Shown here in pieces: positions 4,281-31,256 of a stretch of 64,000 bases of DNA. The notes under the pieces were generated by a model, which saw nothing but the letters and a program-made list of their open reading frames with translations, did not search any database and had not been told where the DNA came from. A program made the translations under genes and the position numbers. The stretch covers positions 387,876 to 451,875 of the forward strand of contig NZ_SETE01000003.1 of assembly GCF_004152935.1 (NCBI RefSeq), read 5' to 3'. The stretch comes from Brumimicrobium glaciale. GTDB taxonomy: Bacteria > Bacteroidota > Bacteroidia > Flavobacteriales_D > Crocinitomicaceae. Within the stretch, counting starts at the first letter, position 1. Every line of letters begins with the position of its first letter.

Positions 4281-4979
4281 ATGGGATTTAACAAATTTGC
4301 AGTAATTGGAGTTGGGAAATATGGTTCAAACATCGCCCGACGTCTTGCCGAAAAAGGAGCACAAGTTTTCGCTTTCGACAATAATGAAGAAAAAATTGAA
4401 AACATCAAGGATGATGTTGCATTTGCTGTGACGTTAAACAGTACAGATTTTAAGATCTTATCCTCTCAGAAATTGGAAGAAATGGATGCCGCTGTGGTAG
4501 CCATAGGTGAGAATTTTGAAGCTACAATTCTAACTGCAGTTCATTTAATGGATTTAGGTGTTAAGAGAATTATTGCACGTGCAAACGGAGCAGATCAAAG
4601 ATTAATTCTAGAAAAAATCGGTATTAAAGAAATCTTAACTCCAGAGGATGAGGTTGCTTTCGTTATTCGAGAGAAATTGCTGAACCCTTCAATTTTATCT
4701 TTCCTTCAGTTATCTGAGGAATATGAAATTGCTGAAATAAAACCTCCAAAAGGAGTACTCAATAGAACAATTCAAGATATTGATTTTAGAAATAAATATC
4801 AATTGACATTAGTAACCATGAGGCGCGAATATGACATTAAAAAGAAAGGTCAGTACGAGGTAGAACAACATGTTATTGGTGTTCCGAAAGGAGATACCGT
4901 AATTGAATCTCGTGATACTTTGGTGGTTTTCGGAACTGCAAAACACGTTCAGCGCTTTATTGACGTAAATGAATCATGA
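4281..4979 (+). CDS. TrkA/KtrA-like regulatory protein (TrkA-N Rossmann domain + TrkA-C)
   Basis: 232 aa with the motif AVIGVGKYGSNIARRL (GxGxxG). Immediately downstream of the PLP enzyme. Confidence 0.7.
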   Translation: MGFNKFAVIGVGKYGSNIARRLAEKGAQVFAFDNNEEKIENIKDDVAFAVTLNSTDFKILSSQKLEEMDAAVVAIGENFEATILTAVHLMDLGVKRIIARANGADQRLILEKIGIKEILTPEDEVAFVIREKLLNPSILSFLQLSEEYEIAEIKPPKGVLNRTIQDIDFRNKYQLTLVTMRREYDIKKKGQYEVEQHVIGVPKGDTVIESRDTLVVFGTAKHVQRFIDVNES

Positions 4980-5750: not shown

Positions 5751-5936
5751 AAATTAGATGGTTACATGTTGTTTTAAAACGAATTTTGTGGAATCATTTT
5801 TTTGGTTTTGATCTGTTTTTAATACAAAAGAGATCCTCTGTCAACTAACGAGATCCCTTGTTAAAATTCTTTTCCAACAAGTTGAAAAAAGAATTTTAAC
5901 AAGGGATGACAGTCGGAGGTGGGTTATTTTGAAAAA

Positions 5937-5985
5937 AGGGGAGAAAAAGTTGATGCTCTGCATCAACTTTTTCTCCCCTTTTTTC
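5937..5985. terminator. Bidirectional rho-independent terminator (18-bp perfect stem flanked by A-run and T-run)
   Basis: ggggagaaaaagttgatg ctctg catcaactttttctcccc followed by ttttttc, and preceded by aaaaaa on the other strand. Two further long hairpins lie at 5855..5905 and 6006..6058. Confidence 0.7.
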
Positions 5986-6234: not shown

Positions 6235-7227
6235 TCAATTATATTTAAAGCTTACTCTTTTTACCGGAACTTTTCTCAAAGTGTCATCTGCGTTGAAAAA
6301 ATTAAGTTCACTTGGAAGAAAATTCTTGTACTTTATAATTCCTAAATCACTGTGTAGAAATTCATCGCTGGCAGAAACTAAACTGTCTTTGATACTCATT
6401 AAAACTCCAGTAGAATCATAATCAAAACATCTTTTAGTGGTAAAATCTTTCGTGTGAAAACTTTGACTTTTTAAAGCTTTTGATGGATAATAAATACGGG
6501 ATTGTTTCAGGGATTTTTCTACTAGATTCACCAATGAAAAAGAGGAAAGATAATCTGTTGGAGAACCATAATAAAATAGGTGTTTTCCTTCTGGATTAAA
6601 GTTATGATCTATGTAGGAGACATTCCAATTTGCTGTGTCCAAGATGAAATAATGATAGATTTCTTTTTTACTGCTTTTGTCAACATATTTAAGTAGTTTT
6701 TCATCTGATTCTTCTAAAACTAATCTTTGATATTGCTGCAGTTCCTGTAAAGTATTCAATAATGAAATCATACTTTTTTCGCGGTATTTTACATTGCTAG
6801 AAACTGCTGGAGTTGAATACCCCAAAGAATCTGTTCCTGATTTGTAACTAAAAATGTGCTGCGCCAATTGAATTCCGTCAATAAATTCTGCCATGACAAC
6901 CTTTTTCACACTTCCTTTTTGATCAAAATTAATTTCTAAAGTTCTATAAGGCATTGTATCGGTAATGTTGACAATACTGTCTGTAAAATTGAAATTTGTA
7001 AATCCAATCAATATGGTTTTAATATCATTTGAATCGATTAATTCTTTGGAAAACCAAGTTGGAAAACTCATGTTTTTCCATCCATCAGCATTCATAACAC
7101 TCCAGTTTATCAATTGCGAAGTTAGCGGTGGCTCAATTAGAATCTCCTCTTTTTTTACTTCTTCCTGACCACAAGAATACAATAATGCGATTGAAAAAAT
7201 CAAAAGATATTTTATGCGAAATTTCAT
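6235..7227 (-). CDS. Lipoprotein of unknown function (lipobox LLYSC), translationally coupled to the upstream beta-CASP hydrolase
   Basis: 330 aa. Signal peptide plus Cys lipobox. Its ATG overlaps the TGA of 7224..8627 (ATGA). No recognisable catalytic motifs. Confidence 0.6.
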   Translation of the reverse strand: MKFRIKYLLIFSIALLYSCGQEEVKKEEILIEPPLTSQLINWSVMNADGWKNMSFPTWFSKELIDSNDIKTILIGFTNFNFTDSIVNITDTMPYRTLEINFDQKGSVKKVVMAEFIDGIQLAQHIFSYKSGTDSLGYSTPAVSSNVKYREKSMISLLNTLQELQQYQRLVLEESDEKLLKYVDKSSKKEIYHYFILDTANWNVSYIDHNFNPEGKHLFYYGSPTDYLSSFSLVNLVEKSLKQSRIYYPSKALKSQSFHTKDFTTKRCFDYDSTGVLMSIKDSLVSASDEFLHSDLGIIKYKNFLPSELNFFNADDTLRKVPVKRVSFKYN

Positions 7228-8627
7228 GTTTCAAAGGTCATGTTTTTATCAGGAATAACCACATTATGGTAGCCATTTTCTTTTAAATGTTTTTTGAAGT
7301 GAACGGCAACTTCTTCCTCACCATGAACTAAGAACAAACGTTTTAATTTCCCTGAATTATTTCCTGACAAATAACGAATCATTTCGTTGTAGTCTGCATG
7401 GGCACTCAAGGATTTAATGTATTCTATTTCGGCATTCACTTTTCTTTCATCTCCAAAAATAGTGACTACTTTATCGCCTCTTTGTAAACGTCCAGCCAAT
7501 GAATTTGGCTCAGCATATCCAACAAAAAGAATGGTGTTTTTAGCTTTTTCTAGTGCATGATAAATATGGTGTTTCACCCTTCCTGCGTCTGCCATTCCTG
7601 AAGCAGAAATTACAATACAAGGCTCATCCAATTCATTTATACGCCGAGAATATTTTTGTTCTTTAACGTAAATCAATTTTTTAAAACCAAATGGGTCGTG
7701 TCGGGTTCCTTTCTTAAAACGTGTAACCTCTCGGTTTAAAAGATGCGAATAACGGCGCATAATATCTGTTGCGTCAATTGCCAACGGACTATCTACAAAT
7801 ATTTTTACATCTGGAAGTAATCCATATAGATCCAATTTATTCAAAGCAAACACTAACTCTTGGGTTCGTCCCAAACTAAAAGCTGGAATTATTAATTTTC
7901 CTTTTTTATCTTTTAAAGTATGCAAAACAGCATTCAATAAACCTTGTTCTGCATCAACGGTATTGTCATGTAATCGATCTCCGTAAGTAGATTCACAAAT
8001 CACGTAATCTGCTTGAGGTGGAAGTTCAGGATTTCGCATTAAAGTAGCGTCGTATCTTCCAATATCCGCTGTGTAAAGTAAAGTATGTTTTTCGCTTACT
8101 TCGTCAATATTCAAATAAATGGCAGCACTTCCTAGGATATGTCCATTCGGAATAAATGTTGCTTTAATTCCTGAAGTTATTGCAGTAATTTCATTTTCCT
8201 TAACAATCACAAACTGATGTAAAGCTTGCTCAACATCTTCAAAACGATAAAGTGGTTCATAAGCAGCATCACCTTCTCTTTGGTGTCTTTTATTAGAATA
8301 AAGCACATCTGCTTCTTGAATATGCGCACTGTCCCGCAGCATAATTTCACATAATGCATGTGTGGCTTCGGTACAAAATATTGGCCCTCTGTAACCATCT
8401 TTTACAAATTTTGGAATTAATCCAGAGTGATCAATGTGCGCATGGGAAAGTAAAATAGCTGAAACGGAAAGCGGATCTGCAAAATCCTCCGAATTTAAAG
8501 AGTGCGTATCTTTTCCCATTCCTTGGTACATTCCACAATCCAACAATACCTTTGTATTGTCCCACAATTGAACAATGTGCTTACTTCCTGTAACTGTTTT
8601 GGCGGCTCCTGCAAATGTAATTTTCAT
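7224..8627 (-). CDS. Metallo-beta-lactamase fold / beta-CASP family hydrolase (RNA-metabolising MBL, RNase J/CPSF-like)
   Basis: 467 aa. HxHxDH motif (LLSHAHIDHSG) near the N-terminus, and a C-terminal beta-CASP region with a conserved His (LVHGEE). Confidence 0.8.
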   Translation of the reverse strand: MKITFAGAAKTVTGSKHIVQLWDNTKVLLDCGMYQGMGKDTHSLNSEDFADPLSVSAILLSHAHIDHSGLIPKFVKDGYRGPIFCTEATHALCEIMLRDSAHIQEADVLYSNKRHQREGDAAYEPLYRFEDVEQALHQFVIVKENEITAITSGIKATFIPNGHILGSAAIYLNIDEVSEKHTLLYTADIGRYDATLMRNPELPPQADYVICESTYGDRLHDNTVDAEQGLLNAVLHTLKDKKGKLIIPAFSLGRTQELVFALNKLDLYGLLPDVKIFVDSPLAIDATDIMRRYSHLLNREVTRFKKGTRHDPFGFKKLIYVKEQKYSRRINELDEPCIVISASGMADAGRVKHHIYHALEKAKNTILFVGYAEPNSLAGRLQRGDKVVTIFGDERKVNAEIEYIKSLSAHADYNEMIRYLSGNNSGKLKRLFLVHGEEEVAVHFKKHLKENGYHNVVIPDKNMTFET

Positions 8628-8931: not shown

Positions 8932-9672
8932 TTACTTTAACTTTTCGGCACTTCTTTTTATTTTAGCTGCTCTCCACAAGTCGTAATAACTTTTCGTTTC
9001 TATGATAATTACGCCACCTGTTGTATCTCCATATTTTGCTGGAATTGCGCTAGAATAAATAGTAATTGCTCCGATAGCAGCACTGGGAATTGATTTCACT
9101 TCATCCATTTTTACTCCATCGATATAAGAAACGAGGTTATTCCCTCTAGATCCACGGATCATCATTTGTCCATTGTCGTCAATCTTTATATCAGAATTTC
9201 TGCTGCTGATTAAAGCTTTCATGTCAGATCGAACAGCACTTTGGGCGATATCTAAACTATTGATTCTTTCTTGACCAAAGTCGAAGCTAATTAAAGGATC
9301 TTGGTAATATCCGATTTTATCAAAACCTTCTATTTCCATTACCTTGTCTTTAAAGTTAATTCGACCTAAATTTTCTATTCCATCTGCCACCACTTTAGCA
9401 TAAATGGTTTGAGAAATAGTGTCCGATAAGTAGTTCACTTTTAGCACATACATTCCTGTTGGAATAGAATTAATTTTAAATCTTCCATTTTCATCTGTGT
9501 CGGCCCCAAATTTTGTGGCACCTCTTTCCACCCAAACTTTGGCGAAAATTGCTGGTTTTTCTGTATCTGGATCTTCAAAAATTTGTCCTTGAATATCTCC
9601 AACCGCTCCTTGAGCAACTGCAAAATTCACAAAGAACATTGCTGCGATAACTTTCATTATTGTTTTCATCAT
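8932..9672 (-). CDS. Carboxypeptidase-regulatory-like + TonB-dependent-receptor plug domain protein, apparently lacking the beta-barrel (possible truncated TBDR)
   Basis: Only ~246 aa from the likely start MMKTIMKV, against ~700-1000 aa for a full TBDR. The ORF-track start at 9699 is probably an upstream extension. Signal peptide and a plug-like region (MIRGSRGNNLVSYIDGVKM). Only ~300 bp of palindrome-rich non-coding DNA follows. Confidence 0.5.
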   Translation of the reverse strand: MMKTIMKVIAAMFFVNFAVAQGAVGDIQGQIFEDPDTEKPAIFAKVWVERGATKFGADTDENGRFKINSIPTGMYVLKVNYLSDTISQTIYAKVVADGIENLGRINFKDKVMEIEGFDKIGYYQDPLISFDFGQERINSLDIAQSAVRSDMKALISSRNSDIKIDDNGQMMIRGSRGNNLVSYIDGVKMDEVKSIPSAAIGAITIYSSAIPAKYGDTTGGVIIIETKSYYDLWRAAKIKRSAEKLK

Positions 9673-9867: not shown

Positions 9868-10020
9868 ATATTTAGATGTTAGATTTTAGATGTTTGTCAA
9901 AAGACAAAAAGTCTAACATACAAAATCTATTGTTTGGTTTAAAAATTTTTAGAAGCTAAAGCTAGATGCATTAAAGCGCATATTTTCAACTATTTATGAG
10001 ATCAATAAAGGGCGTATTGG
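9868..10020. repeat. Intergenic repeat family A, copy 1 (hairpin-rich element; other copies at 30206..30436 and 30437..30665)
   Basis: Shares the tagattttaga...gtctaac...aaatcta hairpin module and the tttagaagctaaagctag...caataaa core with the two tandem copies near 30.3 kb. Confidence 0.6.
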
Positions 10021-16010: not shown

Positions 16011-16336
16011 AAGGTTCGTATTGAATTTCTACTGTTTAGAAATTGAGGTTGTTACTCAATTGTGGAGTTTTAATCTAATTGATTTCACCTTCGCGTACGC
16101 GTTGAATAATGGTCTCCTCCAACTGAAGGATGACACGACTATGATGGGTTTGGGTTGAAAAACGTGGATTAAAAAATCCTCTCCCTCAGTCCCTCTCCAA
16201 AGAGGGAAGTGCTTCGAATCAAGCTTTTGCCATATAAGAAGAGACTCCTCAATCTTATAGTTGTAAGCAATTAGCGGCTTAACTCAGCAATCCAATGAGA
16301 AACAATATCAATGATTTTATCAGTAGCCCAAAATTA

Positions 16337-18310
16337 TCAATTGTCAATTAACTGAACGAATCCAGATTTATCAACATCTTCGCCAGTAATAGTTTTGGCT
16401 TTTATGACATAGAAAAATGTTCCGTTGGTAATTTTATTGCCTTTTTTATCTGTTCCATCCCATTTGAAATCAGGAGTATCGAATTCACGAACTAAATTTC
16501 CCCAGCGATTTACGATCACACATTCTAGTTGTTGAATTCCTTCGAAAGAGATCAGTTTAAAGTAATCGTTAATACCATCAGAATTTGGTGTAAAAACGTT
16601 GGGTACTTCAACATCACAATTGGGATTCACTGAGATAAAAACAGAATCTAAATCTGATTTACATCCTCCAACATTTGCTTGTACATAAAAGTAGCTAGAT
16701 TCTGAAGGTGACAACATCTGACTCGCCCCAATCAAATTATTTGGAAACCATGTGAATTCAGAATTGGGAATCGATGAAACAGCCACTAAGTTTGCTTCAT
16801 CACCTAAGCATAAGTTAACACTGTCTGGTAAAGAAACAAGTGGCTTTTCGCCTAAAACGAGTTGAATGGAATCTATTTCCGTTCCACAAACTGGATGTGT
16901 TCCTTCAAGATATACCCAGCCAATATCAGCAATGGTAGTACTTAAAACTGGAGTTGTTTCGTTTCTTGGTAACCATAAAAAATCAGTTTCAGTTAGATTA
17001 GAGATGGCTTGTAAACTGTTTTGGTCGCCTTCACAAAAAACGGTATTTCCTTCAATTTCAACTTCTAATTCCTCCAGTACAGTCATTTCAAATTCAGCTG
17101 TTGCTACACATCCTTGTGGACTAGTTGCTGTTACTTCATAAATTGTTGTTGTACTTGGCGCAACTGTAATTGTAGCTAGTGTTAAATTATTATTCGTCCA
17201 TAAAAAATCTGTTTGTGGAATTGAAGAAATAACTTTAATTAATCCTGCTGTACCCTCACATATAACCGAATCACCTTCAAATGTAAGAACCGGTAAAGGA
17301 TTAACATTTACGACAACCGTTCCTGTGTTCGATATACAACCGTTTGCATCTTCTCCCACTACAGTATAAGACGTTGTTGCGTTTGGAGAAACATTAATTG
17401 TAGCTCCTGCTCCACCTGGCGTCCAAGTATAAGTCATATTTGAAGACACAGAACTTGCTGTAATATCAACATTATCTCCCTCACAAATGGTTTGTGCTGA
17501 ATTCACTTGAATTACAGGGTTTGGTGGAATTGTAACAGTAACTTGATCAGTATAAGTACAAACTGGTCGAAAAGAGATATCATCAATTGAAAAGTCATTT
17601 CCACCTCCAGAACTATTCAAATTAGTAATACAAATATCAATTGATGTATTGGCTCCGGAATTCCATACTTCAAAAAATTGATTCCATGTACATGCATTCG
17701 TTGCCGTTGAAAATGGTGTTCCTAATGTGGTTCCGTTTATAGAAAATTGAAGTTGTGCAACATTTGGATCATTTAAAGCATTGGCTGCCCAAGTACTAAA
17801 CTGATAGTTCGTATTGGGGGAGACATTTACAGTCTGACACCAAACATTTGTTCCTGGAATATCAGCACCGTTAACAACCATCATATTTCCAGTTCCGGTA
17901 GTATGGTCTGGACAAGAGCTAAAGTTATTGTGAGCATTGCTTGGAGAAGTAGTTATGGCATAAGTACCAGGATTTGAAAGCAATCCATAAGTACCGCCTG
18001 GAACACCAAGTGTATAACCAGTTGTAAAACCAGTATTTCCTGCTGAAAAATCTCCATTTACTACTATTTCTGGTCCCAAATCAGTCGCAAAACAGCTATA
18101 CGTTCCTGATGTAGAAACTGTAATAGAAGATTGAGAAGATCCTGTACTCCAAGCATAACTATCTAGTCCTTGATTGGCTTGAAGTGTATACGTTTGACCA
18201 CAAAGTAATGTTGAATCATTTCCGATAGAGAAGTTAATGTTACAAGGACTTTGGGCTTGCAGTGTAAAAACACAAAACAATAGGGCGACTAAAAGGAATA
18301 TTGATTTCAT
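16337..18310 (-). CDS. T9SS cargo / adhesin-like protein: CBM-like N-terminal beta-sandwich, Ig-like repeats, type-B C-terminal sorting domain (gliding-motility-associated CTD)
   Basis: 657 aa with a signal peptide. C-terminal motif PNVFTPNSDGINDYF...RWGNLV. The N-terminal ~230 aa, ending NDFSIDDISF, is paralogous to the N-terminus of 23577..25880. Confidence 0.75.
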   Translation of the reverse strand: MKSIFLLVALLFCVFTLQAQSPCNINFSIGNDSTLLCGQTYTLQANQGLDSYAWSTGSSQSSITVSTSGTYSCFATDLGPEIVVNGDFSAGNTGFTTGYTLGVPGGTYGLLSNPGTYAITTSPSNAHNNFSSCPDHTTGTGNMMVVNGADIPGTNVWCQTVNVSPNTNYQFSTWAANALNDPNVAQLQFSINGTTLGTPFSTATNACTWNQFFEVWNSGANTSIDICITNLNSSGGGNDFSIDDISFRPVCTYTDQVTVTIPPNPVIQVNSAQTICEGDNVDITASSVSSNMTYTWTPGGAGATINVSPNATTSYTVVGEDANGCISNTGTVVVNVNPLPVLTFEGDSVICEGTAGLIKVISSIPQTDFLWTNNNLTLATITVAPSTTTIYEVTATSPQGCVATAEFEMTVLEELEVEIEGNTVFCEGDQNSLQAISNLTETDFLWLPRNETTPVLSTTIADIGWVYLEGTHPVCGTEIDSIQLVLGEKPLVSLPDSVNLCLGDEANLVAVSSIPNSEFTWFPNNLIGASQMLSPSESSYFYVQANVGGCKSDLDSVFISVNPNCDVEVPNVFTPNSDGINDYFKLISFEGIQQLECVIVNRWGNLVREFDTPDFKWDGTDKKGNKITNGTFFYVIKAKTITGEDVDKSGFVQLIDN

Positions 18311-18493
18311 AATTTTTAAAATATCTGGTTATTAAAATTAATTTAATAGTTATTGTTAGACGAGATGAAAGGCTAAATAGTTGTTTTGCTTTTCACATTA
18401 ATATGCCAAATTCTAACTAATAAAGAACAGTTTAAACTATTGAAAGTAAAGGCATCTCGATAAACATAATCAGCTTTAGTTTCATAATCTAAG

Positions 18494-18531
18494 GTATAAA
18501 AAAAGTGATGGATGAAATGCATCCACCACTT
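18494..18531 (-). terminator. Rho-independent terminator downstream of the 1015-aa T9SS gene
   Basis: On the minus strand: stem agtggtggatgcatttcatccatcact followed by ttttttta. Confidence 0.65.
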
Positions 18532-18540
18532 TTAAAAAAT

Positions 18541-21500
18541 TTATTGAACAATCAGTTTTACAACTTCAGTTTTATTTGCATCTGTAATATGAGCAAAGAA
18601 TACACCTTTACTCCAATTGTTTACATCTATTTTCACAGTTGAATTAATTTCTCCTAAATCAGAAACAACTTTTCCGTTTACATCAAATATTACAACATTT
18701 GCTTTAGCAGTATTCCCTAATTCGATAGTGATAAAATCGCTACTTGGATTAGGATAAATTCTCAAAGCTTCTTCGCTGTTTTCATCTGTTAGACCAACAG
18801 TTGTCGTAATATTCACTGAATTTGTAATGGTTGTATCTCCACAATCGTTTGAAACAACAACTGTAGCTGTATACACTCCTTTATCATCGTAAATATGACT
18901 TATGTTTCCTGATGTATTTGAATCGGTATTTCCATCTCCAAAGTCCCAAGCATAAGCATACCCATTTTGAGCATTTTGAACATTGAATAACGTAACTCCA
19001 GATGGGTGATAAACTACTTCTAACATTCCCACATTTGGAACGTCATTTACAGTAACAATTGTTGAACCCAAACCTGTACATCCTAACGTATCGGTAACTT
19101 GAACAACATAAGCACCTGACTGATTAACAGCATAAGTTTGCGTTACAACACTTGTTCCATTCCATACATAAGTTGAAGTTACATTTCCAGCATCTAAAAC
19201 TACAGAATCACCTTCACAAATTGTATAATCACCTCCTAAGTCTACAATTGGATTAGTGTTATTTAAAACAATAGTCTGAACCATTTTCTGACAGTTACTT
19301 GTAGAATCCTTTCTCATCCACAAATAGTAAGTTCCAGGAGCTAAACTATCAAATTCTTTACCCGCTTGCCATTTTGTTGGTTGATTTGTTGAAGATGTTG
19401 TAATACCAAACTCATATTGTCCAGCAGAGATTTTTAAGTTTTTAAGCGCATGTCTATTTGCATCACCACCCGTTTGAGCACTAAAACAATGTTTCCAATT
19501 GCTAACATCTTCAGTTATATAAGCAGCAGGCAATGCAACATTATCAAAAATAAGAACACCATTCACCATCAAAGAAAGTGCGCCATTTTCAATACTAATA
19601 TCAACAGGAACATCAGCTTGATTTTTCCAACTACTCAGGTCAGCATTATAAGCTAATGTAGTCAGATCTCCAGGAGCAGGAGCATTAGTATTTTGTTTTC
19701 CATAAACTAAATAAACACCTGCTGAATTCGAGCCGTTATCCGCAGAGTCAAAGCTCAATCTTAATTTAGAACCACGTCCATTATTTATGTTACTGTTCGA
19801 AACATTAATGTCATCTGCAAAAGAATAAGCAATACCATCTGCTCCACCTGTTCCGTATGTGTTAATTGGTAAATCAACAGTCAGGTCAAAAGAGATTTGC
19901 ATTGAATTATCACTTCCTAAAACTTGATTCGTTGGTGAAATAACCAAAGATCCATTATTTCCAGTTGCAGAAGGTGTAATTACAGCCATTCCATTTGTCA
20001 AACTTGTGTTTCCTACAACAACAAGGTCAGCTGTATTAGAAGGATCAGAAAAATCATTTTCGAAAATTATTGAACCAGTACTTTGACCGAAATCATTATT
20101 TGCTTGAATTGATCCACCTAAATTTACACAGTTGTAATCTACTACATTTACTTCTGTACCGAAACCAACAGTTATAGTTTTAACCGTAGATTCATTTTCA
20201 ACAGAAGAACACTCAGTTGATCTGATTTTATATTTGATTTTATAAACTGAATCTACTGGAGCATTAATTGCATAAGTATTAGTAGTACCCCAAGCAGCTA
20301 ATGTAACGTTGTTTTCATCCAAGAAAGTATATTCCCAAGCAGCTGTACCTGCTAAACTTGGTAGATTTATAACTTCAAAATTAATAATCGCTGGAGCACT
20401 GCATAAACCACTCGCATTGTAAGTGAAATCTGTAATTACTTTATCAATAGGACTTACTATTACTGTTTCAACGGCTGTACATCCGTTTATTGAAGTTCCT
20501 GTCACTTCATACGTTGTAACATCAGTAGGAGAAGCAGTAACAATTGCAGTATTAGAATTTGATAATCCAGCACTTGGTGACCAAGAATATGTATTTGCAC
20601 CACTAGCCATTATAGCAGCAGGATTACCTCCACAGAATGCGATATCTTGAAAATTCACGGTTAAAGGTGGCGCAGAACTAACTGTTATTGTCTCCACTCC
20701 TGTTAGGATTTCAGTATTATTAGCTAAACATGTTGCTTTTACTCTAATATCAGTCGTTTGAGCCAAACTAGACTCGTAATATGTTGAATCTGAATTTGCG
20801 AAATCAACCCAATTACCATTGTCTAGTTTTTGCCATTGATATACTAATCCATTCACATAAAACAATTCATCAAAAGTTCCATTAAACAACTCATTATCAC
20901 AAAGCGAAGATTGTGCTAATGTCATGTTATAAGGTCCTGTAAAAGCTTGACTTTGACAGTCAACATAATTGATGTGTTGAAATTTAATTTTTGGTACACT
21001 TTGATATAAATTTTGTGCCACCGGTGGAGTTTGTAAACTTGGAATGTTAAAATCATTATAGGTTCTCATAGAACGATTTCCTGTAACAGGGTATGTACCC
21101 CATTGAATTTGGCTGCCGGTATAACCAGGAGACTGATCACGGACTCCTACTACAATATTAGAAACACCATCCCATAAAAAAGTAGAATCTAATTCTATTT
21201 CCATCCATCCATTTGCACCATTTGCAGTAACCGTTCCGTTATAAAGCGTTTCTAGATTAGCAAAAGCTTCCCAATCATTTCCATCTTGAAAAGCTGTTTT
21301 ACTCGTTTGTCCAATTAAAATTGTCCAATTATCAGTGCTAACAACGTTTCCCGACACATTTAAAAAACTTAATTTACTTATTTCAGTGGGAACACCTTGA
21401 ACTGCGGGTAAAAATTCTGAGGCTAAGTAAATACTTTGACTATAACTATAGCCATAATATGAATATACTGGAATATTGGCGTTCTGACCTGTTCCTTGAT

Positions 21501-21588
21501 CCAGAGAGGTTTCATAAACTTGTGATTGAGCACTATTAAAAAAGAGCGCTGAAATAAAAATGATGAGTGAATAATGTTTAAGTTTCAT
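18541..21588 (-). CDS. Large T9SS cargo protein with type-A C-terminal sorting domain (Por_Secre_tail-like), multiple Ig/PKD-like repeats
   Basis: 1015 aa with a signal peptide. C-terminus RIYPNPSSDFITIEL...KLIVQ is typical of a T9SS type-A CTD. Confidence 0.75.
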   Translation of the reverse strand: MKLKHYSLIIFISALFFNSAQSQVYETSLDQGTGQNANIPVYSYYGYSYSQSIYLASEFLPAVQGVPTEISKLSFLNVSGNVVSTDNWTILIGQTSKTAFQDGNDWEAFANLETLYNGTVTANGANGWMEIELDSTFLWDGVSNIVVGVRDQSPGYTGSQIQWGTYPVTGNRSMRTYNDFNIPSLQTPPVAQNLYQSVPKIKFQHINYVDCQSQAFTGPYNMTLAQSSLCDNELFNGTFDELFYVNGLVYQWQKLDNGNWVDFANSDSTYYESSLAQTTDIRVKATCLANNTEILTGVETITVSSAPPLTVNFQDIAFCGGNPAAIMASGANTYSWSPSAGLSNSNTAIVTASPTDVTTYEVTGTSINGCTAVETVIVSPIDKVITDFTYNASGLCSAPAIINFEVINLPSLAGTAAWEYTFLDENNVTLAAWGTTNTYAINAPVDSVYKIKYKIRSTECSSVENESTVKTITVGFGTEVNVVDYNCVNLGGSIQANNDFGQSTGSIIFENDFSDPSNTADLVVVGNTSLTNGMAVITPSATGNNGSLVISPTNQVLGSDNSMQISFDLTVDLPINTYGTGGADGIAYSFADDINVSNSNINNGRGSKLRLSFDSADNGSNSAGVYLVYGKQNTNAPAPGDLTTLAYNADLSSWKNQADVPVDISIENGALSLMVNGVLIFDNVALPAAYITEDVSNWKHCFSAQTGGDANRHALKNLKISAGQYEFGITTSSTNQPTKWQAGKEFDSLAPGTYYLWMRKDSTSNCQKMVQTIVLNNTNPIVDLGGDYTICEGDSVVLDAGNVTSTYVWNGTSVVTQTYAVNQSGAYVVQVTDTLGCTGLGSTIVTVNDVPNVGMLEVVYHPSGVTLFNVQNAQNGYAYAWDFGDGNTDSNTSGNISHIYDDKGVYTATVVVSNDCGDTTITNSVNITTTVGLTDENSEEALRIYPNPSSDFITIELGNTAKANVVIFDVNGKVVSDLGEINSTVKIDVNNWSKGVFFAHITDANKTEVVKLIVQ

Positions 21589-21616
21589 ATTGCGTGTTTA
21601 ATAATTAATATTAAAC

Positions 21617-21624
21617 CAAAAATA
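21617..21624 (-). promoter_or_regulatory. Candidate -7 box TATTTTTG (minus strand) for the 1015-aa T9SS gene
   Basis: TAnnTTTG match 28 nt upstream of the ATG at 21588. The shared 18-mer lies ~34 nt further upstream. Confidence 0.35.
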
Positions 21625-21658
21625 ACTACAGCGCTTTTATATATCGAAAATTTAGCGA

Positions 21659-21676
21659 GACAAAAACAAGACAACT
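21659..21676. promoter_or_regulatory. Conserved 18-mer GACAAAAACAAGACAACT upstream of a T9SS cargo gene (copy 1)
   Basis: Exact 18/18 identity with 25993..26010. Both copies sit ~32-34 nt upstream of a TAnnTTTG box belonging to a minus-strand T9SS cargo gene. Confidence 0.5.
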
Positions 21677-21725
21677 AGGAATTAAAAATCAACTATACCT
21701 TTCAGTTCTTAAAGATTGAGTTGGA

Positions 21726-23369
21726 TTAAACGGTTTTTATAAATTGAATTAATTCCTTTTGAGACTCTATCGAGAGTTTTTTTCTAAGTCTTAAATTAGA
21801 TTTCCGCACTGAATCTTGAGATATTCCTAAAATTCTAGACATTTCAAGACTTGAAAGATTCAACTTGATTAGCATAGCCAATCTTGTCTCAGAATTTGTT
21901 AAATCATCCTGTTTTTGTATCAAAGAATCATAAAAACTAGGATGTATTTTATCGAATAAATGCTTAAACTCCAATAAATCATTCTCTGTCAGTAATGTAA
22001 AAGTGTTGATTTTCTCATATATAACTTCTTTCTCTTTTTGCAAAGTGAGATTTTCATCCGATACTTCTCTTTTATTAATCTCCTGATTTAAGGTGTCAAT
22101 AATATCGTTTTTCACAACTAAGTTTTCTAAAATCTTATTCAACTCTTCCTCGTTCTTTTTAAGCTCTGTTCGTATTTTTTCTTTTTCTAATTCTAAAATT
22201 TTATGCTCATAAATTTTCCTTTTTCGCATCAAATAAATGATGTAAATACAAGCTAAAATGATCACAGATAATATAATTGCAATTCCATAATAGAGTTGAC
22301 CTGTTCGTTTCTCTTTTTCAATTAATAATTCAGACTCATTTCTGTTTTTCTGAAATTTTATTTGAAAAATCATGTTTTGAAGATTCAATTGATCGTATTC
22401 CCTTCCTGATGAATCTTTATATAAAACACTTTGTTGATAAGATTCATAAGCCAATTTATACTCTTTAAGATGTTCCCAGTAAATTGTTTTTATATAATGA
22501 TAGCGCATTACCGAATAATAGTCAGTCACTTGAGGAATCAAAGAATCAAGGGTTTTCATATAAGTTTCAACCAAATCAAAACGCCCTCCATTTAACTCTA
22601 TTTCTATAAGTAGCGCAAGGGCATTTAAGGCGCTTTCTGTTTGCTCGTTTTTCAGACTTAATTCTTTATCTAAAATCAAACATTTTCTTGCACTGATTAA
22701 ATCTCCATTGAGATAGTAGATGAACCCCAAGTTCCCATTGATTATACCAATCCATTCATTGTTATCTATCTTCGTTGCTAGCTTTAAACCTTTATTGAAA
22801 TAATAAATCGAAGAGTCAATATCACCTAATTTTTTGTGAATTAATCCCAACGTATTAATCATACTAATTTTCAAAGTACTCTCTTCTTTCTGTTGTTTTA
22901 AAGCTTTTAAAAGTAATATCCTTGATTCCTCATATCTTCTAAAATCATAGAAATAAGTTCCTTTCATTTCATAAAACTCAGCTGCAAAAGAAATTTCTGA
23001 AATATCGTTCTCTTTTAAAATATTACTCACAACATCTAAATACTCATAAGCTTGATAAGGTTCATTGTCCTTAGTGAGTTTCTTGGCTATTTCAAAACAA
23101 ATTTCTGCATAAACGATGGTGTTTGAACCTTTAAATAATGCTGCTTTTTTAGTAATGAAACTTACGTATGCGTTATTACTTTCAAAGACATCTTTGTTTC
23201 CTACTTTTATGAAGTCTAAAAGTTCTTTCTCTTTATGAATACTTGGTTGTTCAGTCTTTTCTAAAGCTGATAAATTGGTGATTTCTTCACTTTCTTGCGT
23301 AATTGCATGTGAATTGGATACCAAATAAAAGATATAGAACAATATCAATAATAATCTTTTTTGCCTCAA
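21726..23369 (-). CDS. Membrane-anchored one-component regulator: signal peptide, periplasmic TPR repeats, single TM, coiled coil, C-terminal LuxR/GerE-type HTH
   Basis: 547 aa. A TPR-like region, a TM helix (LYYGIAIILSVIILACIYIIYLM), and a C-terminal LuxR-type HTH (LEMSRILGISQDSVRKSNLRLRKKL). Confidence 0.7.
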   Translation of the reverse strand: MRQKRLLLILFYIFYLVSNSHAITQESEEITNLSALEKTEQPSIHKEKELLDFIKVGNKDVFESNNAYVSFITKKAALFKGSNTIVYAEICFEIAKKLTKDNEPYQAYEYLDVVSNILKENDISEISFAAEFYEMKGTYFYDFRRYEESRILLLKALKQQKEESTLKISMINTLGLIHKKLGDIDSSIYYFNKGLKLATKIDNNEWIGIINGNLGFIYYLNGDLISARKCLILDKELSLKNEQTESALNALALLIEIELNGGRFDLVETYMKTLDSLIPQVTDYYSVMRYHYIKTIYWEHLKEYKLAYESYQQSVLYKDSSGREYDQLNLQNMIFQIKFQKNRNESELLIEKEKRTGQLYYGIAIILSVIILACIYIIYLMRKRKIYEHKILELEKEKIRTELKKNEEELNKILENLVVKNDIIDTLNQEINKREVSDENLTLQKEKEVIYEKINTFTLLTENDLLEFKHLFDKIHPSFYDSLIQKQDDLTNSETRLAMLIKLNLSSLEMSRILGISQDSVRKSNLRLRKKLSIESQKELIQFIKTV

Positions 23370-23576
23370 AACCTCATCTCTTTTTTCATGTAAAATTGAT
23401 AGTCAATTACGAATTCCCAACTTTTTAATTAAACAATTGAATTAAAGCTTTATCAATAAATTCAAAATGCAGATTCGTAACTTCTGAAAGTTATCTAAAA
23501 TATTGAAACTAAAAAGTAAGTCCTTGTAAAAAATCACCGAATTCGTAATTGACAATTATAAATGATCAATTGGTTT

Positions 23577-25880
23577 CTATCTTATCAAAACAACAGTCCC
23601 CGTCTTTATAACTACATTTTCATTTTTTAATTCATTGAAAGTTATCTTCCAAGAATACATACCTGCTTTTACTATTTGACTCCCATAAGTTCCATCCCAA
23701 CCTACACTGTAATCATTTGATTCAAATATTTTTTCTCCCCAACGATTATATACTTCAAACTTATACTGCTGCGGATCTACTCCGACAGTCATTATTGGAA
23801 GAAAAACATTGTTATTGTCATCACCATTTGGCGTAAAAGCATTGGGCACATAAAAAATTGTTTGGTCTTTTACTGGAACAATTCTCGTTGTTGAGTCAAT
23901 ACAGCCTTTATCCGAAGTAACGATTAACTTAACCTCATAGTTGCTTTCTTTACCAAACGGGAAAGTGAAAATTGGATGAGCTTCTGTGCTTTGACCTAAT
24001 CCATCAAAATTCCATTGATTTTGAGCGTTCAACTCTGATTGATTTTCAAAATTAACTACAGGGTTATCAGAAAATATACTTTTTGGTTTAAAATCAAAAG
24101 CCGCAACAGGATCTGGGTTAATACAGATAAGCTTGTTTTCTGTCAAACTTGAGGTACAAAAATTGTCTGTTACAATTCTTAAACCGATGTTATAACATTT
24201 CACTTCTTCAAAAGTATAACTCATGGTGTTGTTCACTCCCACTTGGTTTCCATCAACAAACCAAGTATAATCTGTGCTTCCATTCACAACTGTTAAATCC
24301 GTAAAATCAACAGTTAATGGACTACAACCTTCATATAAATTAGCAGAGAATTGAATATCTGCTATTTCACTTAACTCTATACTTACAAATGCTGTATCTG
24401 CTTCACACGGAAAATCATTGCTGACCACAAATTGGAAATTATAGCTATTTTTCGATAAATTATCTAACTGTAAAATTCCAGATGAAGGATTAAATATTGA
24501 ATTTGGCAACCCATCCAAAGAGGACCAAACACCAGCATTATTGACGGTTAAAAAGTTATTTAAGTTTGTTGTTCCATCACTACAAAAACGTTCAGAAATA
24601 TCATTTCCTGCGCTTTTAAAAACCTTAATGTCCAGTTCAAAAACAGCAGTATCTGATGGACAAAATGTACTGGTTAAGACATAGTCATAATTATTAACCC
24701 CTAACAATTGGCTAATATCTAATTGTCCGCCATTTATCAATATCCCAAGTTCAGTATACCATGCTCCTGATGTAGAAATTGAAGGATCTAATAAACTAAA
24801 TAGATCAACATTTAGATCCGTATCACAAAAAGAAAACGAGTCATCCATTCCAGCGTCTGGAGGCGTGTGAAAAGTGACAATAAAATCTTGTTGTTCATCA
24901 CAATAACCGTCATCAGAAACAGTCACTGTAAAAGTTCCAGAAGTATCTACTTGAATTGTTTGGGTGGTTTCATTTGTAATCCACTCATAATCAAAACCAG
25001 GGTTTTCTGCATTCAAGGTTAAAATTTCTCCTTCACAGTCATTTAAAATAGTTGGTAGAGAAAATACTGGACTCGAATTATAAGTAACATCAATGGTATC
25101 ATTAAAAACACAAATCGGAGAAAATGAAATATCATCAAGTGAAAAGTCATTTCCACCACCAGTACTATTCAAATTGGTAATACAAATTTCAGCCGTTGTT
25201 GCTGTTCCAGAATTCCAAATTTCAAAAAACTGATTCCATGTACATGCAGTCGGAGAGGCAGCAAAAGGTATTCCTATATTCACCCCATTTATGGTAAATT
25301 GAAGTTGCGCAACATTTAGATCATTCAAAGCATTGGCTACCCAAGTACTAAATTCATAATCAGTATTTGGAGAGACATTTACTGTTTGACACCAAACACT
25401 CGTTCCGGGAATATTTGCTCCATTCACAATCATCATACTTCCAACTCCTGTTGTATGGTCTCCACAAAAGCTAAAATTATTGTGCACATTGCTGGGTGAG
25501 GTATTGATGGCATAAGTTCCAGGATTTGACAAAATTCCCCAAGAACCACCTGTACCCACAATATAATCTGTTAGAAAGCTTGTGTTTCCCTGTGAAAAAT
25601 CACCATTTATCACCAAGTTAGTAGATAAATATTTTACTTCAACGAAATAAATCCCAGTTGCTGAAACTGTCCTTGTAGCTGAATTTGATCCATTATCCCA
25701 AGTAATTGAAGGATTATTTGTTAAACCCGATAAATCAAATTGTAAGGTATTGTTTGGACAAAGTATGGTGTCGTTTCCAAGGTCTGGACCAGTAAATTGA
25801 GTGCATTGGGTTTGTGCATGAACTATAAAAATAGCGAACATACCCAATTGTATAAATATATTTTTGAAATGAGCTTTCAT
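23577..25880 (-). CDS. T9SS cargo / adhesin-like protein with CBM-like N-terminal domain and type-B C-terminal sorting domain
   Basis: 767 aa with a signal peptide. N-terminal domain ending NDFSLDDISF is paralogous to 16337..18310. C-terminus PNAFTPNGDDNNNVF...RWGEKIF. Confidence 0.75.
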   Translation of the reverse strand: MKAHFKNIFIQLGMFAIFIVHAQTQCTQFTGPDLGNDTILCPNNTLQFDLSGLTNNPSITWDNGSNSATRTVSATGIYFVEVKYLSTNLVINGDFSQGNTSFLTDYIVGTGGSWGILSNPGTYAINTSPSNVHNNFSFCGDHTTGVGSMMIVNGANIPGTSVWCQTVNVSPNTDYEFSTWVANALNDLNVAQLQFTINGVNIGIPFAASPTACTWNQFFEIWNSGTATTAEICITNLNSTGGGNDFSLDDISFSPICVFNDTIDVTYNSSPVFSLPTILNDCEGEILTLNAENPGFDYEWITNETTQTIQVDTSGTFTVTVSDDGYCDEQQDFIVTFHTPPDAGMDDSFSFCDTDLNVDLFSLLDPSISTSGAWYTELGILINGGQLDISQLLGVNNYDYVLTSTFCPSDTAVFELDIKVFKSAGNDISERFCSDGTTNLNNFLTVNNAGVWSSLDGLPNSIFNPSSGILQLDNLSKNSYNFQFVVSNDFPCEADTAFVSIELSEIADIQFSANLYEGCSPLTVDFTDLTVVNGSTDYTWFVDGNQVGVNNTMSYTFEEVKCYNIGLRIVTDNFCTSSLTENKLICINPDPVAAFDFKPKSIFSDNPVVNFENQSELNAQNQWNFDGLGQSTEAHPIFTFPFGKESNYEVKLIVTSDKGCIDSTTRIVPVKDQTIFYVPNAFTPNGDDNNNVFLPIMTVGVDPQQYKFEVYNRWGEKIFESNDYSVGWDGTYGSQIVKAGMYSWKITFNELKNENVVIKTGTVVLIR

Positions 25881-25992
25881 AAAATAATTTGAAAATAGAA
25901 ATTTAACATCAAGTTAAAGGCGAAAATTAAGCGTTAAAGCACATAATCATTCAAATATAAAAAGATTATTTCTGGAATTTTATTAGTCGTGG

Positions 25993-26010
25993 GACAAAAA
26001 CAAGACAACT
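25993..26010. promoter_or_regulatory. Conserved 18-mer GACAAAAACAAGACAACT (copy 2), upstream of the 767-aa T9SS gene
   Basis: Identical to 21659..21676. A TATATTTG box on the minus strand (plus coordinates 25952..25959) lies 32 nt downstream in gene orientation. Confidence 0.5.
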
Positions 26011-26197: not shown

Positions 26198-27469
26198 ATG
26201 TTGGAAATTACAAGGATTAGAGCAGAGAAAGATATCCTAATTGAAGGATTGAAAAAACGAGGCGTAGATTTTAGCCCACAATTAAACGAAATAACATCAC
26301 TTGATGAGTCATGGCGTGCTAAAAAATCTGAATTAGAATCAGTTCAATCCGACAGTAATAAAATCTCAAAAGAGATTGGAAAACTAATGGGAGCAGGAAA
26401 AACAGAGGAAGCGAATGCTGCCAAAGAACAAACTGCTAAACTTAAAAAACAAGAGCAAACGCTCAAGGATGAAGTAAGTCAATTAGAGGATAAAATTCAG
26501 GTATTACTTTACGAAGTTCCTAACGTTCCATTGGCAATAGTTCCTTCAGGCAAATCTGAAAATGATAACATAACAGTTGAAGAAGTAGGACAAAAAGTTC
26601 AGTTTTCTGGAACACCATTACCGCATTGGGAATTGGCTAAAAAATATGACATCATCGACTTTGAGTTGGGTGTTAAAGTTACAGGAGCAGGATTTCCATT
26701 CTATAAAGGAAAAGGAGCGAAAATTCAACGTGCTTTAATTAACTTCTTTTTAGCTGAAGCAGATAAAGCAGGTTATACTGAATATATTCCGCCATTAATG
26801 GTGAACGAAGCAAGTGGAATTGGCACTGGACAATTGCCAGACAAAGAAGGTCAAATGTATCATGATGCAAAGGACAATTTGTATTTGATTCCTACCTCTG
26901 AAGTTCCTTTAACGAATATTTACCGAGATGTCATTCTTCCAGATGAAAATTTCTCAATCAAAATGACAGGATACACGCCAAACTTTAGAAGGGAAGCTGG
27001 ATCTTATGGAAGTGATGTGCGTGGATTAAATCGTTTACATCAATTTGATAAAGTTGAATTGGTGCGTATTGAGCATCCAGACCGTTCTGAAAAAGCATTG
27101 GAAGAAATGGTAAACCACGTAAAAGGTTTACTTGAAAAACTAGGTTTACAATACCGTGTTTTACGTCTTTGTGGTGGTGATTTAGGATTTACATCTGCTA
27201 TCACTTATGATTTTGAAGTATTTTCAGCAGCACAAGAAAAATGGTTAGAAGTGAGTTCTGTTTCATTATTCGAAACTTTCCAAGCCAACCGTTTAAAATT
27301 GCGTTTCAGAAATGAAAGTAAGAAAACACAATTGTGTCACACTTTAAATGGAAGTGCTTTGGCATTACCAAGAATTTTGGCTGCGTTGCTTGAGAATTAT
27401 CAAACGCCAGAAGGAATTGAAATTCCAGAAGTATTAGAGAAGTATGTGAATTTTAAGATGATAAATTAA
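26198..27469 (+). CDS. serS: Seryl-tRNA synthetase
   Basis: 423 aa. N-terminal coiled-coil arm, then a class II core with motif 2 (FRREAGSYG) and motif 3. Confidence 0.9.
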   Translation: MLEITRIRAEKDILIEGLKKRGVDFSPQLNEITSLDESWRAKKSELESVQSDSNKISKEIGKLMGAGKTEEANAAKEQTAKLKKQEQTLKDEVSQLEDKIQVLLYEVPNVPLAIVPSGKSENDNITVEEVGQKVQFSGTPLPHWELAKKYDIIDFELGVKVTGAGFPFYKGKGAKIQRALINFFLAEADKAGYTEYIPPLMVNEASGIGTGQLPDKEGQMYHDAKDNLYLIPTSEVPLTNIYRDVILPDENFSIKMTGYTPNFRREAGSYGSDVRGLNRLHQFDKVELVRIEHPDRSEKALEEMVNHVKGLLEKLGLQYRVLRLCGGDLGFTSAITYDFEVFSAAQEKWLEVSSVSLFETFQANRLKLRFRNESKKTQLCHTLNGSALALPRILAALLENYQTPEGIEIPEVLEKYVNFKMIN

Positions 27470-27537: not shown

Positions 27538-27599
27538 ATAATCCCAAAAAAAAACCGACGTAATTGCATGCAATTACGTCGGTTTTTTTTTGGGATTAT
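27538..27599. terminator. 62-nt perfect palindrome: bidirectional rho-independent terminator after serS
   Basis: ataatccc a9 ccgacgtaattgcatgcaattacgtcgg t9 gggattat. Perfectly self-complementary, with A/T runs on both sides. Confidence 0.75.
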
Positions 27600-30205: not shown

Positions 30206-30436
30206 ACATTTAGATTTTAGAGGTTAGACATTAGACATTTTTAGTCTTCTGTCTTTCGTCTAACTTCTAAAATCTATTTTTTGAAATGAAAATTTTAGAA
30301 GCTAAAGCTAGCTGCACTAATCCCGATGGCTTATCGGGAGCATAGTTTTAACTATTTCTGAGACCAATAAAAAGTATTGATTGTTAGAATTAAGCCAAAT
30401 TTATAAAGTTGTTTTTTTTCTAATTCTACTAAATAT
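30206..30436. repeat. Intergenic repeat family A, copy 2 (tandem with copy 3)
   Basis: ~230 bp. Hairpin tagattttagaggttagac...gtctaac(t)tctaaaatcta, the tttagaagctaaagctagctgcactaat segment, and the cccgatggcttatcggg hairpin. ~90% identical to 30437..30665. Confidence 0.7.
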
Positions 30437-30665
30437 TTAGAGGTTAGATTTTAGAGGTTAGACATTAGACATTTTTCAGTCTTTTGTCTTTTGTCTAACC
30501 TCTAAAATCTATTGTTTGATATGAAAATTTTTAGAAGCCAAAACCAACTGCACTAATCCCGATGGCTTATCGGGAGCATAGTTTTAACTATTTCTGAGAC
30601 CAATAAAAAGTATTGATTGTTAGAGTTAAGCCGAATTTATAAAAGTTGTTTTTTTCTAATTCTAC
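30437..30665. repeat. Intergenic repeat family A, copy 3; includes the last ~9 codons and stop of the Crp/Fnr gene
   Basis: Tandem to copy 2. The segment aagttgtttttttctaattctac that encodes the Crp/Fnr C-terminus (RKKQLL*) is present in both copies. Confidence 0.7.
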
Positions 30666-31209
30666 TGAAAGTCTCTGGTGTCATTCCTAACATCGAAGCA
30701 ATATATTGCAGCGGAACTTCATTAAATAACGCTTTATTTGATTCAAAAAACATTTTATACCTCTGTTCTGCCGACATTGATAAATGACTAAAAACACGGT
30801 CTTCTAAAGTGATGAAACAATTAATCAAAAACTGCTTTTCCAAGGAGTGCCATTGGGAAACAATTTCTCCAATTTTATCATAATTTTCTTTGGTAATAGA
30901 AAACACTTCTGTGTCTACCAAAGCTTGAATAGAGAGTCGAGAAGATTCCTCATAAATAAAACTCGCCAAATCAGTTGAAAAATATCCTTTTGTGGAGATC
31001 CATTGCGTCACTTCATTTCCATCCACTAATGCGAACATGCGTAATAATCCAGATTGAACAAAACTGAGTTTATTACACTTTTTACCTGATTCTAATAGAA
31101 AATCACCCTTTTTAAGCTCAGAATATTCAAAAAGCTTACTGATTTTGTTTAAATCCTCTTTTTCGAGAATTCCAAAACTGGCTTCAATATATTTTTCGAG
31201 TTCTGTCAT
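30637..31209 (-). CDS. Crp/Fnr-family transcriptional regulator (cNMP-binding + HTH)
   Basis: Start set at MTELEKYIEA (ATG at 31209). The ORF-track N-terminal extension MARFYYFTLSQI overlaps the flotillin terminator hairpin and is probably spurious. cNMP-binding beta-roll, then a C-terminal HTH (ASMLGMTPETFSRIRK). Confidence 0.75.
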   Translation of the reverse strand: MTELEKYIEASFGILEKEDLNKISKLFEYSELKKGDFLLESGKKCNKLSFVQSGLLRMFALVDGNEVTQWISTKGYFSTDLASFIYEESSRLSIQALVDTEVFSITKENYDKIGEIVSQWHSLEKQFLINCFITLEDRVFSHLSMSAEQRYKMFFESNKALFNEVPLQYIASMLGMTPETFSRIRKKQLL

Positions 31210-31227
31210 GATTTGTGATAATGTGAA

Positions 31228-31256
31228 ATAATAAAACCTCGCCAATTGACGAGGTT
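31228..31256 (-). terminator. Rho-independent terminator of the flotillin/NfeD operon
   Basis: On the minus strand: aacctcgtcaattggcgaggtt followed by ttattatt. Confidence 0.6.

Follow-up and report, generated by a model that had tools for sequence, protein, structure and literature searches.

A conserved tandem repeat upstream of two type IX secretion cargo genes of Brumimicrobium glaciale as candidate operator of a membrane-anchored regulator

When two neighbouring genes for secreted proteins carry the same short word upstream of their promoters, and a gene for a putative DNA-binding protein lies between them, is the word the binding site of that protein? The question is raised by a stretch of 64,000 nucleotides (nt) from the Bacteroidota member Brumimicrobium glaciale (contig NZ_SETE01000003.1, positions 387,876 to 451,875; hereafter the window, with a guanine plus cytosine content of 33.6%), in which the 18-mer GACAAAAACAAGACAACT occurs exactly at 21659-21676 and 25993-26010 of the plus strand. 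In gene orientation, that is on the minus strand, both copies read AGTTGTCTTGTTTTTGTC, and both are followed by a -7 box of the TAnnTTTG type, 34 nt on by TATTTTTG in front of gene A and 33 nt on by TATATTTG in front of gene B, just as a preliminary description made from the sequence alone had reported. A and B encode cargo proteins of the type IX secretion system (T9SS), and between them lies gene R, whose product is 100% identical to ERX46_08945 of B. glaciale and combines tetratricopeptide repeats (TPR) with a helix-turn-helix (HTH) domain. The repeat is read here as the operator of R, which would act on it as an activator of the two cargo promoters, with a probability of roughly 0.75. Footprinting among related species and the co-occurrence of motif and regulator family carry this reading, and they likewise strongly support the earlier proposal of a shared regulator site in an activator-type position with the TPR-HTH protein as its presumed binder. 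The features that the argument needs are the following.

18541-21588, minus strand: target gene A, 1015 residues, PKD domain and T9SS type A C-terminal sorting domain
21617-21624, minus strand: -7 box of the A promoter, TATTTTTG, 34 nt past the repeat core and ending 28 nt before the ATG
21656-21676, minus strand: candidate operator A, AG-TTGTCTTG-TTT-TTGTCTCG, weight-matrix score 30.2
21726-23369, minus strand: regulator gene R, 547 residues, B. glaciale ERX46_08945
23577-25880, minus strand: target gene B, 767 residues, PKD domain and T9SS type B (CHU_C) sorting domain
25952-25959, minus strand: -7 box of the B promoter, TATATTTG, 33 nt past the repeat core and ending 71 nt before the ATG
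25990-26010, minus strand: candidate operator B, AG-TTGTCTTG-TTT-TTGTCCCA, weight-matrix score 30.7

Syntenic loci were fetched by means of R homologues with 93% (L039), 61% (L043), 60% (L042), 57% (L044) and 56% identity (L040, from Brumimicrobium aurantiacum), and the order serS, B, R, A, C is kept in them, with a gene X between B and R in B. aurantiacum. The site upstream of A is intact in four of the five (L039, L040/L041, L042 and L043) and decayed in the fifth, L044, whose retrieved DNA has no A gene behind it, and the site upstream of B is likewise intact in four (L039, L042, L043 and L044). Pairwise identity among these loci amounts to 0.89 within the 19-nt core of the site and to 0.36-0.46 in the adjacent flank and spacer. 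What is conserved is the unit TTGTCYYG-TTT-TTGTCYCR, in which two head-to-tail half-sites (TTGTCYY) start 11 bp, or one helical turn, apart; the 18-mer singled out at the outset is thus the core of the site, the functional unit being a tandem repeat of 19-21 nt that extends 3 nt further. In every species operator A lies 16-230 nt past the stop codon of the regulator gene (50 nt in B. glaciale), and of the orthologous sites only the decayed one of L044 lacks the -7 box. Counted over the Brumimicrobium clade, TAnnTTTG follows the core after 33-35 nt at 10 of 11 sites, which had not been selected on spacing. Judged from this footprint, the repeat is a genuine conserved cis-regulatory site. In two GC-richer loci found by the metagenome scan described below (L058 and L063), a third TTGTCC half-site stands some 18-22 nt, about two helical turns, upstream of the pair.

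The place of the site within the promoter can be derived from the -7 box, since the corresponding sigma-A box of Flavobacterium psychrophilum occupies positions -12 to -5 (PMC9723704), which puts the repeat at about -62 to -44. Start sites are accordingly predicted near 21612 for A (24-nt leader) and near 25947 for B (67-nt leader), so that operator A, upstream of A, would span about -62 to -44 and operator B, in the divergent spacer between B and serS, about -61 to -43. In promoters of Bacteroides and Flavobacterium, a conserved TTG at -33 is expected at a set spacing, some 19 nt, upstream of the -7 box. None of the A or B promoters has it, TTC or TTCG being found in some, and its lack is consistent with promoters that depend on an activator. 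Two other assignments of the repeat were tried and discarded. It does not serve as the -33 element itself, as its last TTG is 35-37 nt away from the -7 box, and a promoter for an extracytoplasmic function (ECF) sigma factor is rejected because the GTC words are 11 nt apart, a -7 box of the sigma-A type is conserved 33-35 nt downstream and there is no CGT -10 box.

If the repeat belongs to R, it should be met again where R homologues are encoded, and it was looked for from both sides. When loci were retrieved by protein similarity only, all five distant R homologues (23-40% identity) were found to carry a tandem TGT(C/A)C repeat with a period of 11 bp past their stop codon:

L047, R homologue with 40% identity: TTGTCCCGCTTTTGTCCCA, and 33 nt further TTGTACCGCTTTTGTACCG
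L071, R homologue with 29% identity: TTGTCCCAATTTTGTCCCAC, 34 nt, then TACATTTG
L068, Mucilaginibacter litoreus, R homologue with 28% identity: TTGTCTTGATTTTGTCCAC
L069, Maribacter algicola, R homologue with 26% identity: TGTACCCCTTTTGTACCCC, two copies
L070, Sphingobacterium kyonggiense, R homologue with 23% identity: TGTCCACCCATTGTCCACC

The word of the half-site changes as the regulators diverge, becoming TGTAC or TGTCCAC in the most divergent homologues, and the period is kept. A generic detector of tandem repeats with period 11 gave nine matches in 205.6 kb (both strands), all of them at the repeats next to R homologues, and none in the same DNA with periods of 10, 12 or 13. Altogether, the site lies next to the regulator stop codon in every one of the 11 loci retrieved by protein, and these come from three or more families of Bacteroidota. 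What the computations show is the existence of the site, how well it is conserved, that it keeps a fixed distance from the -7 box, and that it is linked to the R family.

Retrieval by the motif only, in which metagenomes were scanned for TTGTCYYGTTTTTGTC followed after 33-35 nt by TANNTTTG, yielded 20 loci. Sixteen are credible and have a pyrimidine after the second TTGTC, though none was required there; the other four have a purine at this place and no gene context, and look like chance matches. Eleven of the 16 credible sites adjoin a gene of the R family, L053 and L067 only weakly so (E 3e-6), and several loci from outside Brumimicrobium (L060, L051 and L050/L066) contain R homologues with 30-35% identity. 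The genes downstream are varied. They encode A-like or B/C-like T9SS cargo in L057, L058, L060 and L063, a response regulator consisting of the receiver only in L050/L066, and proteins without a family match in L053 and L064. This variety suggests that the site marks targets of the R family and not T9SS cargo in general, which also fits its absence upstream of cargo gene C and of gene X of B. aurantiacum; the motif is therefore no mark of T9SS cargo promoters as such, as had been considered earlier. Some of these loci have arrangements of their own. In L064, identical operators (7803-7821 and 9519-9537) precede two adjacent genes without known function, and in L053 the operator (6566-6584) lies before the regulator-like gene itself, which suggests autoregulation. 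In L051 (4620-4790), the transcript predicted from the site would be about 100 nt long and end at a hairpin terminator (4623-4650) common with the regulator gene; a small RNA or an antisense unit under the same operator is conceivable.

The architecture of R was read from its sequence and from a full-length AlphaFold2 (AF2) model with a mean predicted local distance difference test (pLDDT) score of 82.

23304-23369, minus strand: signal peptide, residues 1-22, from sequence and AF2 model
22470-23231, minus strand: TPR domain, residues 47-300, from sequence and AF2 model
22227-22292, minus strand: predicted membrane helix, residues 360-381, a hydrophobic helix within the long helix 304-455
22005-22226, minus strand: predicted coiled coil
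21729-21902, minus strand: LuxR/NarL-like HTH, residues 490-547

The model places short helices at residues 492-502, 507-514, 518-532 and 537-546 of the HTH; a single-sequence AF2 model of the isolated domain (pLDDT 57) was too poor for a fold search. A profile built from the full-length alignment was swamped by TPR matches when compared with the PDB, and the C-terminal domain alone was used instead: a profile of 12 such domains (95 residues) matched almost exclusively HTH domains of the NarL/FixJ/LuxR type, namely StyR 1yio (E 0.0017), 3clo, NarL 1je8 (0.0044), VpsT, EsrB, VraR, DosR, EvgA, EL222 and SdiA. Each match spans 50-65 residues and is marginal if taken singly, and together they are consistent. 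The designation TPR-LuxR given to R earlier thus holds for the TPR part and, for the LuxR part, only at the level of the superfamily, R itself staying under the cut-off of the GerE family. The C-terminal 247 residues of R retrieve 2,410 cluster representatives (clusters at 50% identity) at E up to 1e-10, nearly all of them 520-600 residues long and matching at their C-terminus; N-terminal TPRs were found in all ten relatives sampled, and conservation within the family is highest in the HTH segment. The nearest characterised architecture is that of the SusR-like regulators, which are described by the Pfam families TPR_SusR (PF28559) and SusR_C (PF19904, formerly DUF6377). R itself matches neither of them, SusR_C not even at E up to 1. 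Among the distant homologues, Pfam matches are recorded for P0020 (SusR_C, PF19904) and P0018 (TPR_SusR, PF28559), and weak sub-threshold DUF6377 matches occur in three of the ten sampled relatives and in the L053 protein. R may therefore be said to have a SusR-like architecture as far as its predicted topology goes, and to be no more than distantly related to the curated SusR families.

How R itself is transcribed bears on how such a circuit might behave. In L040, L042 and L043, R begins only 16-41 nt after B (or after gene X in B. aurantiacum) and is probably co-transcribed with it; given this short spacing, the operator of B probably also drives R, which would amount to positive feedback if R is an activator. 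The spacer between B and R measures 207 nt in B. glaciale and L039, and 184 nt in L044. In the window it contains inverted arms of 18 nt (23399-23416 and 23539-23556, 94% complementary), which may represent a small insertion that uncouples R from B. No terminator was seen between R and operator A in a scan that also missed the hairpin between A and C and whose sigma-70 consensus is uninformative for this phylum, and read-through from R into A is possible.

On these grounds a mechanism can be proposed, in which the binding of R, its role as activator and not as repressor, the kind of signal and the positions of the start sites are all inferred. After cleavage of the signal peptide, the TPR domain would reside in the periplasm and be connected, via the membrane helix and the coiled coil, with the HTH domain in the cytoplasm. 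A periplasmic signal perceived by the TPR domain would alter the arrangement of the coiled-coil dimer, the two HTH domains would then bind the tandem half-sites from one side of the DNA, and this pair, held at a fixed position, would recruit RNA polymerase to otherwise weak promoters and so switch on A and B. Where R is co-transcribed with B, it would also switch on itself, closing a positive feedback loop.

Several observations weigh against this reading. R matches the GerE family (PF00196) with 17.3 bits (model positions 4-56 of 57), below the gathering cut-off of 23.5 bits, and a longer R fragment with 15.3 bits; the homologues P0020 (25.4 bits) and P0169 (25.7 bits) are above the cut-off, and most others score 16-20 bits. 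HTH domains of the GerE type usually bind inverted repeats, and two of them carried by a parallel coiled coil would more naturally recognise such a site than a head-to-tail one. In B. aurantiacum (L040) the site upstream of B is absent; for five of the 16 credible metagenome sites the retrieved DNA contains no regulator gene (three of these loci span less than 1.1 kb upstream of the site); and in L051 the site, together with its -7 box, is directed back towards the regulator 3' end. Finally, the word TTGTCCC is nearly unchanged among regulators that are only 29-40% identical, which leaves room for cross-talk among paralogues or for some other conserved binder.

The last point leads to the possibility that the tandem repeat is bound by some other conserved protein, for instance a response regulator or a global regulator, and that the TPR-HTH gene merely travels with the targets. 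The near-constant word, the credible sites without a regulator gene in the retrieved DNA and the response-regulator receiver encoded downstream of the site in L050/L066 would all fit such a factor. It is nevertheless improbable, as it leaves unexplained why the site stands next to the regulator stop codon in every protein-retrieved locus across families, and why the half-site shifts to TGTAC or TGTCCAC in the most divergent homologues; the constancy of the word, in turn, is explained by the HTH being the best-conserved segment of the family. Unlikely too, if somewhat less remote, is that R binds the repeat and represses or anti-activates, for instance by holding the DNA at the membrane or by blocking an upstream element until the signal arrives. 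The site would be in place regardless of the mechanism, and membrane tethering could in principle sequester DNA. Against repression, however, the site lies wholly upstream of -33 and covers neither the core promoter nor the start, its distance from the -7 box varies by no more than 2 bp among families, as is typical of contact with the polymerase, the promoters lack the -33 TTG, and SusR, which has the closest characterised architecture, is an activator (PMC3878776).

That the repeat acts as an RNA element or as an element of the regulator 3' end (a leader, an attenuator or a terminator) is a reading suggested by the position of operator A shortly past the regulator stop codon in every species, where read-through transcripts would contain it. 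It has very little probability, since the RNA folds of both operator regions are no better than those of shuffled sequences (z -0.14 and +0.81), an Rfam search found no family at the operator sites, operator B is not downstream of any gene, and a conserved spacing to a promoter box in the DNA is not expected of an RNA element. Least credible, to the point of being negligible, is a chance match or a remnant of local duplication without function. By itself, it is not rare for such a window to contain an exact 18-mer repeat, and B and C are indeed paralogues; yet the repeat is common to A and B, which are not paralogues, and is not shared by the paralogues B and C, its position, orientation and spacing are kept alongside regulators of 56-62% identity while the flanks have diverged, and it recurs with distant R homologues.

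The rarity of the bare 18-mer had in fact been overestimated. Its chance of occurring twice in the window had been put at 0.004, a value too low by a factor of about 100: when 200 windows of this composition were simulated with an order-1 Markov model and 18-mer repeats counted on either strand, 44% of them held some repeated 18-mer (mean 0.8). A shuffle test that gave 0 of 100 is conditional on the word having been chosen already. The bare repeat is not significant, and within the window only the matching position and orientation of the two copies counts. Several other, unrelated repeats of 18-21 nt exist in the window, and exact ones of 19-21 nt join unrelated places at 9947/30293 and 54423/54652, so that repeats of such length are not rare there. 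A short tandem repeat lies at 5853-5969, and two adjacent paralogous open reading frames (ORFs) of 404 residues occupy 218-1432 and 1575-2789. The degenerate inverted copy that had been described upstream of C at 18374-18391 lies in fact at 18379-18396 and is at chance level, with 4 mismatches; 2.3 matches with up to four mismatches are expected per window, and three with four mismatches are present. This candidate was rejected, as it falls below threshold with the weight matrix built from the true sites, and it is further undercut by two related species in which the corresponding spacer between A and C has only 61-66 nt and consists of just the hairpin. Degenerate or relaxed sub-motifs show no enrichment elsewhere in the window.

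Nor is the 18-mer part of a dispersed repeat, which would have spoken against the earlier proposal. An exact scan of 185,579 species-representative genomes (596 Gb) returned 37 scattered matches, the source genome not being among them, a number at chance level and close to the 17 or so expected for random sequence of uniform composition. All 37 are unrelated in context, and none has a -7 box at the right distance. Eleven of them are codons of one orthologous Bacteroides signal peptide (MRKLFLFLVVLFLS...), seen in at least ten species (L002, L005, L013, L015, L017, L018, L022, L026, L028 and L030); these matches are a coincidence unrelated to the operator. In the window itself there are two copies in 64 kb, whose similarity stops within 3-4 nt of the 18-mer, unlike what is seen with repetitive extragenic palindromic or miniature inverted-repeat transposable elements.

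The cluster to which the targets belong contains further features:

16337-18310, minus strand: cargo gene C, 657 residues, T9SS type B C-terminal domain
18501-18533, minus strand: intrinsic terminator hairpin after gene A, 14-bp stem and U run, fold z-score -6.8
26198-27469, plus strand: serS, diverging from B across a spacer of 317 nt

C, A, R and B are all on the minus strand, and only serS, divergent from B, is on the plus strand. The assignment of A, B and C as T9SS cargo is borne out by their sorting domains, which are of type A in A (TIGR04183, 55.9 bits) and of type B in B and C (TIGR04131, 44.2 and 53 bits), and the Pfam families Por_Secre_tail and CHU_C are also found in these proteins. 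Their passenger regions gave no informative match to a family or structure, that of A having no family match, and a look through the large ORFs of the window revealed no further T9SS cargo. The hairpin after A is kept in all related species, and in the two species with the short spacer it makes up the whole of it. It would separate A from C, and C, which has no operator of its own, would be expressed from an unrecognised promoter of its own or by read-through. On the minus strand, about 130 nt past the stop codon of C (16176-16210), lies a sub-threshold match to the Whalefall-1 RNA (29.6 bits, gathering 37, E 0.0002). The neighbours of the locus comprise T9SS cargo genes, serS, an ABC transporter, rbfA and FtsX-like genes; no susC/susD was found in the cluster or in six syntenic loci, and no glycoside hydrolase nearby. 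Just past the serS stop codon, a perfect overlapping palindrome of 32 nt (27538-27599), at which only sub-threshold Rfam noise was seen, looks like a bidirectional terminator. Further on, at 30210-30670, a unit of about 235 nt is present in two tandem copies (92-100% identical), which each contain inverted arms of 27 nt (TAGATTTTAGAGGTTAGACATTAGACA), lie partly upstream of the ORF 30637-31245 and overlap its start.

When considered from a comparative point of view, R most resembles SusR (BT3705) of Bacteroides and its paralogues, with which it shares, by its predicted topology, the design of a phylum-specific membrane protein that senses in the periplasm and carries its HTH at the C-terminus in the cytoplasm. 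SusR activates adjacent genes, and the operators of SusR-like regulators have been predicted as direct repeats that are spaced by 67 or 77 bp and lie upstream of TAnnTTTG promoters, a binding site having been determined experimentally for none of them (PMC3878776). The arrangement described here likewise places a direct repeat upstream of the -7 box, but its half-sites are 11 bp instead of 67 or 77 bp apart and its words differ; moreover, it is T9SS cargo genes that would be targeted, and neither a susC/susD pair nor a glycoside hydrolase was found near them. In contrast to the NarL/FixJ/LuxR factors, R has neither a receiver nor an autoinducer domain, its HTH is predicted to be tethered to the membrane via a coiled coil, and the site is head-to-tail. 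A single polypeptide that senses in the periplasm and binds direct repeats upstream of a promoter in the cytoplasm is also known from the proteobacterial ToxR and CadC, in which the winged-helix domain is N-terminal and the periplasmic domain C-terminal. Their topology is thereby opposite to that predicted for R, to which these proteins are unrelated in sequence. Finally, the PorX/PorY-SigP system of Porphyromonas and the SM6 ECF promoters of F. psychrophilum also control the T9SS repertoire in Bacteroidota (PMC9723704). There, the secretion machinery is governed via an ECF sigma factor and a CGT -10 box, whereas here a -7 box of the sigma-A type combined with an upstream operator would govern cargo genes.

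Neither the motif nor a link from the regulator to cargo genes was found to be described in the literature searched, in which the motif strings returned only primer-like coincidences. Control of transcription in Bacteroidota is poorly known outside the polysaccharide loci of gut Bacteroides, and even for SusR the DNA site is only predicted. To this the present locus adds a sharply defined candidate operator, kept between species, for a family of membrane-anchored regulators with thousands of members, together with a promoter layout of fixed geometry and, in the secreted T9SS cargo proteins, a concrete set of candidate targets. By what route periplasmic signals act on promoters in Bacteroidota, how cargo genes are regulated apart from the secretion machinery, and whether the regulons of orphan regulators can be predicted by scanning for tandem repeats thereby become testable. 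A wider and rather doubtful extension would be that the TGT(C/A)C tandem with a period of 11 bp, 33-35 bp upstream of a -7 box, is the operator grammar used throughout a very large and so far uncharacterised branch of SusR-like TPR-membrane-HTH proteins (about 2,400 clusters), which would couple a periplasmic TPR sensor to the expression of T9SS cargo in Brumimicrobium and several other lineages. The TPR domain might then sense the cargo itself or the state of secretion, its response being self-amplified through co-transcription of the regulator, and, if this were true, the targets of the whole branch would be readable directly from genomes.

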